Source of the DNA: Candidatus Versatilivorator sp.
GTDB lineage: Bacteria; Acidobacteriota; Terriglobia; Versatilivoradales; Versatilivoraceae
Length of the DNA: 64,000 nt
Assembly (NCBI GenBank): GCA_965207735.1
Contig: OZ242296.1
Span: 3,040,001 to 3,104,000, forward strand
Reading direction: 5' to 3'
Shown: in pieces, positions 4,269 through 6,301 of the stretch
Layout: the number at the start of each line of letters is the position of its first letter
How positions within the stretch are numbered: position 1 is the stretch's first letter
Program-made: the position numbers and the translations under genes
Notes under the pieces: model-generated
Databases searched by the model: none
What the model was told of the DNA's origin: nothing
What the model saw: only the letters and a program-made list of their open reading frames with translations

Positions 4269-4470
4269 TCATTACGTCGGCTTGTGCGTCACTTCGGCTC
4301 ACCGGCATTTGCTGCCGCCGCTTCGCCGCTCTCAAGGAAGCCGGCTAAAGCAGCATATTCTCAGGTAAGTCCGGCCCCCGCCCTGGTGTGCGGATCATAC
4401 ATAGAGTGAAACAATCAGAAATCGATCAACCCTTCGTGAACTTGGTACCCCGTCGCGGTCAACCTCAGCG

Positions 4471-4510
4471 CCTTCGTGCCCCTTCGTGGTCCTTCGTGAC
4501 CCTTCGTGGA
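4471..4510 (+). repeat. 10-bp tandem repeat CCTTCGTGNN x4
   Basis: ccttcgtgcc ccttcgtggt ccttcgtgac ccttcgtgga; related array at 47948-47977. Confidence 0.85.
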
Positions 4511-4629
4511 TAAGTCTTTTTCTTTTGTCGTTTTGTCGTTTGTCGGTTGTTTCAGACAAGTCCCGCCCCCGCCCCCCACGACGGGCGGATCATTCGAGGG
4601 TGAAACAACGGATCATTGTGAAAGAATAA

Positions 4630-4790
4630 GCACCTGGCGAGACTCCGGCAGCTACGCCCCGTTCCAGCATTGGTGCCCCGTGCCCCAAGACAAGTCTGGG
4701 TCCGAGCAGGTCATCATTCATTAGTGAGGCTTCCCGGGAAGCTCTCCTCAAGGCAAGAATCCGAACGACCACGCCAACTCGGGCCGGAGC
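4630..4790 (+). ncRNA. Candidate IS110 bridge (seek) RNA
   Basis: Two internal-loop modules [guide]-TGG/TAG-hairpin-[guide ending AG]; segments AGACAAG (4688-4694) and AGGCAAG (4751-4757) match the left and right junctions. Confidence 0.6.
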
Positions 4791-4815
4791 CCTCGCCCTG
4801 GAGGAGGCCAATCTC

Positions 4816-6222
4816 ATGCAAAAGAGCAGGAAAGTCAACACGAAGGCGAAGAAGACCCCGAAGAAGAAGCGCAGCCGTTCGACAGCCTTGTCGCGGATCC
4901 ACCCCGAGGTGGCAGGGATCGACCTGGGGAGTCGGGAGCACTGGGTGTGCGCTCCGGAGGTGACCCCAGGGAAGCCGAACGTGCGCACCTTCGGCACCAC
5001 CATGGAGCAGTTGCAGCAACTGGCCGACTGGTTGCTGGAGCAAGGGGTGGAGTCGGTGGCGATGGAGAGCACCAACGTGTATTGGATTCCCCTCTACGAA
5101 CTGCTGGAGTCCTGCGGCATCGAGGTCTTGCTGGTCAACGCCCGGCAGTTGCGCTACGTTCCGGGCCGCAAGACCGACATGCGGGACTGCCAGTGGATCC
5201 AGTTGCTGCACAGTTGCGGCTTGCTGCGGGGATCCTTCCGTCCGCACGAGGCGATCGTCCGGGTTCGGACCCTGCACCGGCAACTGAGCACTCTGGGGGC
5301 CGAGAGTACCCGCTTTGTGCAGTGGATGCAGAAGGCGCTGGATCAGATGAACGTCCAGATCCATCGTGCGGTCACCGATCTGACCGGTCAGACGGGGATG
5401 GCGATCGTGCGGGCGATTGTCGACGGCGAACGGGACCCGGTCCGTCTGGCGGGTCTGCGGGACCGACGGTGCAAGAAGTCCAGCCGGGAGTTTGCCGAGC
5501 ACCTCAGAGGCAACTGGCGAGAAGAGCATCTGTTCAACCTCAAGTCGGCGCTGAAGCTCTACGACATGACTCAACGCGAGATTGCGGCCTATGAGGCCCG
5601 CATCCTGGAGGAAATCCAGGCGCTGCAACCGGTGGAGCGCCACGACCAGCCCGTGCCGAAGCATCCCAATGCGATCAAGGAAAAGGCGATTCGCCGCCGC
5701 GGTGGGCACCACCTGCGCACCGAACTGTGGCGCTTTGCCGGAGTCGATCTGACGCGTATCGACGGCATCGGCACCGAAGCGGCCCTGACCCTGCTGACTG
5801 AGGCCGGCCTCGACCTGACGGCCTTCCCCTCGGAGAAGCACTTTGTATCCTGGCTGCGCCTGGCTCCAAAAACGGCCGTCTCCGCAGGCAAGCCGCTCCA
5901 CTACAAGAAGGCCAACAGCACCGGGTCTACTCGCGCCGCCGCCGTCCTGCGCATGGCAGCCGTCTCTCTGAAGCACTCCAAGACCGCTCTGGGGGCCGCC
6001 TTCCGTCGCAAGGCCCGCCACAAGGGATGGAGTGTCGCCGTCTTCTCCATGGCTCGCCGGCTGGCCGTTCTCGTCTACCGCATGCTGCGCTACGGCCAGG
6101 ACTACATCGACATCGGGGAAGCGTGCTACGAGGACCGGTTCCGGCGACGACGCCTCGCGGGCCTCAAAGATGCCGCTAAGTCTCTTGGTTTCAACCTCGT
6201 TCCACAAATCGCAGCCGCTTGA
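4816..6222 (+). CDS. IS110 family transposase / DEDD recombinase
   Basis: RuvC-like DEDD motifs AGIDLG, VAMESTNVYW and PGRKTDMRDCQWI; C-terminal LTRIDGIG...SWLRLAPKTAVSAGK containing the candidate catalytic Ser; RBS GGAGG upstream. Confidence 0.95.
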   Translation: MQKSRKVNTKAKKTPKKKRSRSTALSRIHPEVAGIDLGSREHWVCAPEVTPGKPNVRTFGTTMEQLQQLADWLLEQGVESVAMESTNVYWIPLYELLESCGIEVLLVNARQLRYVPGRKTDMRDCQWIQLLHSCGLLRGSFRPHEAIVRVRTLHRQLSTLGAESTRFVQWMQKALDQMNVQIHRAVTDLTGQTGMAIVRAIVDGERDPVRLAGLRDRRCKKSSREFAEHLRGNWREEHLFNLKSALKLYDMTQREIAAYEARILEEIQALQPVERHDQPVPKHPNAIKEKAIRRRGGHHLRTELWRFAGVDLTRIDGIGTEAALTLLTEAGLDLTAFPSEKHFVSWLRLAPKTAVSAGKPLHYKKANSTGSTRAAAVLRMAAVSLKHSKTALGAAFRRKARHKGWSVAVFSMARRLAVLVYRMLRYGQDYIDIGEACYEDRFRRRRLAGLKDAAKSLGFNLVPQIAAA

Positions 6223-6301
6223 ACTGCGGGGTTGTTTCAGGCAAGCGCGAACGCCCGATTGCCAGCTCGCAGGCCGGGGACGGCACTCAACTACTTGTGC
6301 C

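Follow-up and report, generated by a model that had tools for sequence, protein, structure and literature searches.

The window analysed here is the whole 64,000-nucleotide stretch of Candidatus Versatilivorator sp. DNA (Acidobacteriota; contig OZ242296.1, positions 3,040,001 to 3,104,000), and it holds at 4561-6245 an insertion sequence (IS) of the IS110 group whose 468-aa recombinase probably reads the ends of the element on a single folded DNA strand and probably transfers only that strand, a reading that rests on sequence comparison and to which we give a probability of about 0.62. By its sequence the element is an IS110-group bridge-type recombinase, without the opposite-strand donor guides on one duplex that are found in IS621. 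Its predicted bridge RNA carries a left and a right target guide (LTG, RTG) and a left and a right donor guide (LDG, RDG), and covariation among homologues has shown that the LDG reads an internal site at 4589-4595, 29 nt inside the left end, and not the junction; being in coding-strand sense, the LDG thus pairs with the same minus strand as the RDG.

Boundaries of the element

The genome holds 10 full-length copies with protein identities of 95.9-100%, and in 10/10 the left boundary falls directly after the AG equivalent to 4559-4560 and the right boundary at the AG of 6244-6245, with AG present at both ends of every copy and right flanks that are mutually unrelated. Querying 26 genomes with the right flank gave a match in 14. 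One orthologous site (L165) is without the element and has a single AG before the same flank, only the right side being comparable, and another (L166) holds only a miniature unit ending at the same AG; at a relative's locus (L008), a right end is joined in tandem to a left end at that AG. The start shared by the 10 copies, the orthologous sites and the L008 tandem together place the left end at 4560|4561, not at 4623, and the right end is at 6245|6246. An earlier note on this DNA, made from the letters alone, had left the left boundary ambiguous between these two positions; this was not borne out, all 10 copies including 4561-4623, and the ends are now fixed by the copies, L165 and L166. The left end comprises 255 nt with the RNA upstream of the gene and the right end 23 nt past the stop codon, with the 2-nt AG core at both junctions and one copy of it in the empty site; a terminal inverted repeat or a longer target-site duplication is absent. 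The features on which the guide analysis depends are as follows.

4554..4560, plus strand: target half for the RTG, ending in the AG core 4559-4560; equal to 4688-4694
4561..4568, plus strand: first 8 nt of the left end, an unpaired spacer at which 10/10 copies start; its first base fits the target-loop handshake base
4589..4596, plus strand: internal left-donor site ATCATTC with a mismatched pseudo-core (C then G, not CT), identified by LDG covariation
4636..4797 (approximate), plus strand: predicted bridge RNA with an outer stem 4636-4649/4783-4797, from the consensus fold
4661..4669, plus strand: LTG, fast evolving
4688..4696, plus strand: RTG 4688-4694, equal to the left flank, and handshake dinucleotide 4695-4696
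4713..4720, plus strand: LDG, in the same sense as 4589-4595
4751..4757, plus strand: RDG, in the same sense as 6239-6245
6231..6245, plus strand: right end, made of the inverted repeat 6231-6239, the right-donor half 6239-6243 and the AG core 6244-6245

As a separate candidate, a left end at AG|AAT (4623-4625) was tried and rejected: read directly, it matches the module-2 left guide at only 4/6 positions, and among homologues the two do not covary (2.57 versus 2.45 permuted, p 0.22). The circle-junction sequence is also seen fixed in chromosomes as right end-left end tandem joins (L008:2900-2975, L143/L153 and L157).

Covariation of guides and DNA

Homologous loci numbering 160 were gathered (50, plus the best 80 of 587, plus 30), of which 129 had the gene and at least 250 nt upstream and 93 were parsed by one pattern for the two RNA modules. 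Both ends were present at 79 parsed loci, which reduced to 33 at <80% mutual identity and to 32 long enough for the covariation test; two of the 32 were mis-anchored, and these were counted as misses in the main test and excluded from the 30-row tests. The left-end anchor was chosen blind to the guides, as the GAAAC-like motif with the best upstream DNA hairpin, and the null distribution was obtained by permuting guides among elements 20000 times under the same best-of-register rule. In addition, 15 nearest-identity sister pairs were examined, guide differences being scored as followed or not by both DNA sites.

For both right guides, the matches exceed chance. The RDG matched the right end at 4.91/5 positions versus 2.17 permuted (perfect 5/5 in 30/32), and the RTG, which reads the 5 nt lying 5′ of the target AG, matched the left flank at 4.25/5 versus 1.96. 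Right ends followed the RDG differences of sister pairs in 18/19 cases, and RTG differences were followed in 34/44, a figure inflated by the choice of the junction with the RTG. Among the genome's own copies, RDG and right end are identical in 10/10, including an A/G switch common to 2 of them, and the RTG equals the left flank in 5/10 with a one-base difference in the other 5. In IS621, cleavage of the top strands falls immediately 3′ of CT, and once strands have been exchanged, donor position 7 pairs with the base that follows the RTG (PMC11208158); here the base in that place is identical to the first base of the left end in 27/32 (expected fraction 0.48), as expected after top-strand exchange, and this handshake match places the exchange at 4560|4561. 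For the donor-loop handshake against the right flank, no signal was found in the 32 homologues (0.44 versus 0.46).

The sequences quoted in the earlier note for its modules 1 (4660-4694) and 2 (4711-4757) are all where it had placed them, AGACAAG of 4554-4560 recurring at 4688-4694 and AGGCAAG of 6239-6245 at 4751-4757, and its assignment of module 1 to the target loop and module 2 to the donor loop is upheld by the guide covariation together with the two-loop consensus fold. Because both right guides are in coding-strand sense, the minus strand plays the part of the IS621 'top' strand and carries CT; the covariation in the 32 homologues agrees with the note on this core, i.e. CT on the minus and AG on the coding strand.

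The LDG behaved otherwise. Against the same-sense internal left-end site it scored 5.16/6 versus 3.14 permuted (maximum 3.91 of 20000), with 17/32 loci perfect and 26/32 having at least 5 matches, and against the canonical inverted junction 1.84/6 versus 1.86, with at least 5 matches in 0/32. LDG differences between sister pairs were followed by internal sites in 17/24 and by the canonical junction in 1/24. Three plasmid loci of 45-46% identity, outside these statistics, have the same layout by eye with 4-5/6 matches. The earlier note had proposed an ordinary IS621-type duplex donor and target, inverted relative to IS621, with a left end at 4561 or 4623. The inversion stands for the right guides and the core, which fit such a geometry as, weakly, does the LTG; the plain inverted duplex donor does not, as the LDG covaries neither with the inverted junction nor with any AG-adjacent site further inside the left end, and all copies retain 4561-4623, which makes this reading highly improbable. 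Alternatively, the LDG could pair an antisense RNA or only regulate or stabilise the complex, the right guides alone serving catalysis. An antisense RNA described over the ISPpu9 5′ region (PMC12288879) and the weakness of the LTG would accord with this, but the miniature derivatives described below, which have no gene to regulate, retain the internal site, the hairpin and their spacing, and C + 6 nt + GAAAC is in exact mirror register with the cut strand, so that we take it as improbable.

The LTG appears weakly used. It matched the reverse complement of the right flank at 2.41/6 versus 1.48 permuted, a significant excess but with 0/32 perfect, and its sister-pair differences were followed in 9/59. 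The 7/10 match to the right flank pointed out in the earlier note is real in the analysed copy, with 0.7% of random AG sites reaching at least 7, but it is the best of ten, the copies scoring 7, 5, 3, 4, 2, 5, 5, 2, 4 and 3 of 10. At 86 array right ends, only the C at +1 of the LTG motif fits (57% versus 31% background), and +2 is C, not the T predicted from the LTG. Same-sense LTG matches in 60 nt of right flank, as a fold-back target would have, were tried as well and gave no signal (4.00 versus 3.95).

Some loci depart from the common pattern. The right ends of L030 and L015 match the RTG and not the RDG, as expected from a half-match or a donor/target mix-up. In L175 (Dinoroseobacter plasmid pDSHI01), the left junction and the RTG apparently end by eye in AA, not AG, which would appear to be a naturally altered target core. 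The RTG of a sister element (79-80% identity) is GGTCAG, and this sister element sits in tandem 7-mer repeats of the TGGTCAG/TGATCAG kind (L017-L025, plus C1:107479 of the source genome).

A proposed donor folded from one strand

The layout of the left end is AG + 8 nt + hairpin + left-donor site + C + 5-7 nt + GAAAC, and that of the right end is GTTTC + 5 nt + AG, in which two further features are found.

4569..4588, plus strand: DNA hairpin with a 6-bp stem (4569-4574/4583-4588) and an 8-nt loop, abutting the internal donor site
4601..4609, plus strand: left sub-terminal inverted repeat, the reverse complement of 6231-6239 (9/9)

A stem running from 7-9 nt past the AG to the donor site averages 5.37 bp in the homologues versus 3.05 bp permuted, with at least 4 bp in 23/30. 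At stem pair 2, the 145 distinct modules of the genome show C-G in 95, T-A in 17, T-G in 14, C/A in 5 and others in 14, and this C-G to T-A compensation gave a Fisher p of 4e-9, the module copies being related. The outer 3 nt of the left inverted repeat covary with the right end (1.69/3 versus 0.95 in the 32 homologues), and folding energies favour the pairing of a left end with its own right end over that with right ends of other elements (-11.7 versus -10.4 kcal/mol). The inverted repeat is 5-9 bp with its left copy 41 nt inside, unlike the 2-3 bp sub-terminal inverted repeat (STIR) of the IS110 group. In place of CT, the internal site has a pseudo-core C[AG] in 25/30 homologues, and in the genome C[AG] was counted 234 times versus C[CT] once.

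From this geometry we infer that the minus strand of the circle junction would fold into a stem-bubble-stem donor in the IS621 register, C + 6 nt + GAAAC giving the same spacing on both bubble sides. The recombinase would then act as follows. Cleavage 3′ of CT at both junctions would let the minus strand be copied out into a single-stranded circle. There, a bubble would be flanked by two stems, namely the inner hairpin (4569-4588) and the paired end repeat (4601-4609 with 6231-6239); CT and the right donor would lie on one of its sides and the complement of the left donor on the other. The donor loop would bind both bubble sides, while the target loop would open a duplex target, mostly via the 7-nt RTG, and a single strand exchange would join the circle into the target's minus strand. 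The mismatched pseudo-core on the folded-back side would disfavour a second-strand exchange, and replication or repair would complete the insertion.

Instead of a single-stranded circle, a supercoiled double-stranded circle or the integrated left end might extrude the same fold-back as a cruciform. The two strands fold about equally (-14.9 versus -13.8 kcal/mol), a replichore bias is absent, and host conversion of single-stranded to double-stranded circles has been proposed by Xie et al., all of which would suit a cruciform; yet a stem-bubble-stem with a 13/15-nt mismatched bubble should be a poor competitor of the duplex, and a second exchange, which a duplex donor would allow, is ruled out by the pseudo-core; we judge this version unlikely. 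A further reading does without any fold-back, the donor loop binding two separate duplex half-sites in trans, with the LDG on the internal site and the RDG on the right end, while the hairpin and GAAAC serve as protein-binding motifs. For this speak the substrates that cross both loops in the IS621 excision complex (PMC13626964), reports of half-match recombination and the behaviour of an ISPpu9 palindrome mutant given below. Half-sites so inverted would, however, tend to give inversions or crossovers at 4595, and among the 234 pseudo-core sites of the genome the inversion product, joining the internal site to CT and the right donor, was found 0 times; the variable-sequence stem, which ends exactly at the site and has compensatory changes, would also be left unexplained, and such binding in trans seems unlikely as well.

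Several points weigh against movement of one folded strand. Compared with shuffles, the folded junction gains only modest stability (z -1.8 to -2.0), and in its energy-minimum fold the bubble is partly paired, which would leave it to protein and RNA to shape the donor. The left-end palindrome mutant of ISPpu9 still circularises by end-point PCR (PMC12288879), and hence the hairpin is not strictly needed for excision there, its authors suggesting a role of the palindrome in integration instead. CazIS110 prefers a double-stranded DNA donor ∼20-fold at one junction (10.1101/2025.10.25.684509). Sequence cannot separate a single-stranded circle from a cruciform, and the absent strand bias is neutral if the target is duplex and lends no support to fork-derived single strands. 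Moreover, 36 of the 129 loci were unparsed and stand outside the tests, mostly at <47% identity with four at 61-66%, and the relatedness of the homologues makes the permutation p values overstated; optimistic as these are, the canonical control and the paired contrasts nevertheless agree in direction.

The recombinase and the bridge RNA

The element is intergenic, its neighbours being genes for a sodium:solute symporter and an HpcH aldolase, and its recombinase gene is as follows.

4816..6222, plus strand: IS110 recombinase, 468 aa, with PF01548 and PF02371, D36/E84/D121/D124 and S356

Based on its sequence, the protein is of the IS110 family, with an N-terminal DEDD RuvC-like domain and a C-terminal Tnp (Transposase_20) domain with the catalytic Ser. 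PF01548 was matched at E 2.7e-22 and PF02371 at E 8.8e-12, and NF033542 at 222 bits (cut-off 140); D36, E84, D121 and S356 are invariant and D124 nearly so among 11 homologue sequences, and S356 aligns with the catalytic Ser segment of IS621, in line with the 468-aa IS110 recombinase named in the earlier note. A predicted model (mean pLDDT 72.7) had the IS621 and ISCro4 structures as its top fold matches, the identity to the IS621 protein being 18%. No HUH/Y1 transposase Pfam match was found in the element.

The recombinase is ∼140 aa longer than that of IS621, the extras being a basic disordered N-terminal 30 aa, helical inserts at ∼180-235 and ∼270-308 and a C-terminal helix at 435-456; judging from the predicted model, these segments are candidates for gripping the DNA hairpin. 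Relatives of <60% identity occur on 255 plasmid records, including Citrobacter (61), Enterobacter (20) and Klebsiella (7), with no Pseudomonas record among the recombinase matches listed.

For the bridge RNA, a consensus fold of 24 homologues has two loops, 20/28 pairs with compensatory changes and the guides in open loops, and the single-sequence fold was no better than shuffles (z -0.1). Rfam gave no match at E<=1, and a scan of 4480-4830 of the window for a sigma-70 promoter and a terminator found none. Contigs from RNA libraries of relatives overlap part of the region in 4/4 runs, which shows presence only and not ends, strand or level.

Miniature derivatives and arrays

The element sits in the right end of a miniature unit that has the same ends as the IS.

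4370..4560, plus strand: miniature non-autonomous derivative, i.e. a left-end module, ∼120-nt filler and a right-end module, whose right end is the target in which the IS sits

Genome-wide, 228 left-end modules and 226 right-end-like junctions fall into 167 clusters. The left-end modules belong mostly to miniature derivatives and occur in tandem arrays, and junction spacings are concentrated at 60-68 bp (a bare left end plus right end), 180-192 bp and 1673-1685 bp (IS). The miniatures keep the internal site, hairpin and spacing, and we infer that they are moved in trans by the element's recombinase. The RTG is almost identical to the RDG in the source genome, so each element right end would also be a target, which would account for the tandem arrays. 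Array orientation is 82:85 among the 167, with no leading or lagging replichore bias, whether replichores were set from local skew (four scales), from skew extremes or by taking dnaA as the origin; the skew profile is asymmetric, and so the replichores are uncertain.

The GC-skew minimum lies at 4.51 Mb and dnaA at 3.54 Mb with noisy skew between, an offset that suggests large rearrangements, perhaps between repeats. At 13/99 terminal right-end junctions, the last 5 nt (R-Y-R-A-G) are directly duplicated past the junction (such as C1:62821, 466511 and 3825076), a length equal to the right-donor half; these possibly reflect insertion at the upstream AG of the target, or slippage. A second dispersed repeat module lies at 4310-4369 before the miniature unit and precedes the left-end module at ∼11 places in the genome, and the two may be composites travelling together or sharing a target.

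Comparison with known systems

Like IS621 and ISCro4/IS622 (PDB 8WT6-9, 9T56), the element has a composite active site of DEDD and Ser, a 2-nt core, a handshake base, a long left and a short right end, and a bridge RNA upstream of the gene with target then donor loop in a guide-core-UGG-stem arrangement. IS621 itself has 326 aa, CT on the coding strand and a 2-3 bp STIR; both of its target guides tolerate mismatches poorly, and its guides address a single contiguous duplex, the left ones pairing the bottom and the right ones the top strand (PMC11208160). Here the core is on the other strand, the two donor guides read one and the same strand at places ∼35 nt from each other in the circle, the protein has 468 aa and the left target guide is weak.

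The closest described element is ISPpu9 of P. putida KT2440 (PMC12288879), by the layout of its ends. Both of them carry AG as the coding-strand core, and its circles are joined there. Its A box (43 nt) reads AG + 7 nt + palindrome + site + 6 nt + CAAAC, and its B box (16 nt) reads GTTTG + 5 nt + AG; this layout is the same as the element's and in nearly the same letters as locus L142. ISPpu9 also has MITEPpu9 with the same ends, tandem copies and 8 miniature inverted-repeat elements (MITEs), and it targets repetitive extragenic palindromes (REPs); unlike it, the present element has ∼200 miniature units and its own right end as target. In the accessible portion of that account, no bridge-RNA guides are mapped on the ends and no fold-back model is given; if the fold-back is true, it would explain the ISPpu9 left-end palindrome.

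CazIS110-1 works by top-strand copy-out and accepts single-stranded donors (10.1101/2025.10.25.684509), and single-stranded circles have been reported for IS621. It shares with the half-match work on IS621 (10.64898/2026.08.31.748434) top-strand-only copy-out, single-stranded circles, top-strand insertion and tolerance of half-matches, but both use the canonical contiguous left donor-right donor junction and describe, in the text available, no folded donor. In ISPpu10 (10.64898/2026.03.19.712850), a DNA stem-loop likewise adds to RNA-guided recognition, there in the target, with a CT core and a canonical donor. In the open literature, to which subscription papers, figures and preprint supplements did not belong, no paper on a folded donor or a same-strand LDG was found; an inverted-guide cluster is possibly held in Fig. 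S12 of 10.64898/2026.10.21.760802 or in the IS lists of the ISCro4 papers.

Whether IS110 elements move one strand or two is openly disputed in papers of 2024-2026, and the end architecture of this clade makes a hard prediction: only a strand that folds back could present both guide sites, and second-strand exchange should then be impossible. In a recent survey the junction windows extended 25 nt to each side of the core, and models in which four sites covaried clearly were retained; such windows miss the LDG of this clade, and reprogramming by duplex donors could fail or mislead. The element also offers an origin for ∼200 intergenic repeats in sponge-type Acidobacteria.

Tentatively, and at somewhat less than even odds, we suggest that a widespread clade (38-100% identity; Acidobacteriota, Myxococcota, Cyanobacteria and Proteobacteria, with ISPpu9 as a probable member) is adapted to obligate single-strand transposition, with a hairpin-capped, pre-melted fold-back donor that presents both guide sites. 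If this were true, any single-stranded circle with the 60-nt junction could be spliced into a 7-nt RNA-programmed site, hundreds of REP-like intergenic repeats would be accounted for, and the recombinase would be a programmable inserter of single-stranded cargo and an RNA-guided counterpart of IS608 and REP/RAYT. Those systems, i.e. IS200/IS605 (IS608) and REP/RAYT, combine single-strand transfer with a sub-terminal hairpin, a one-sided target and many non-autonomous hairpin repeats, and they do so with HUH/Y1 tyrosine enzymes, DNA guides and a lagging-strand bias, unlike the DEDD/Ser enzyme, the RNA guide and the even strand distribution, no bias having been found, of the element described here.

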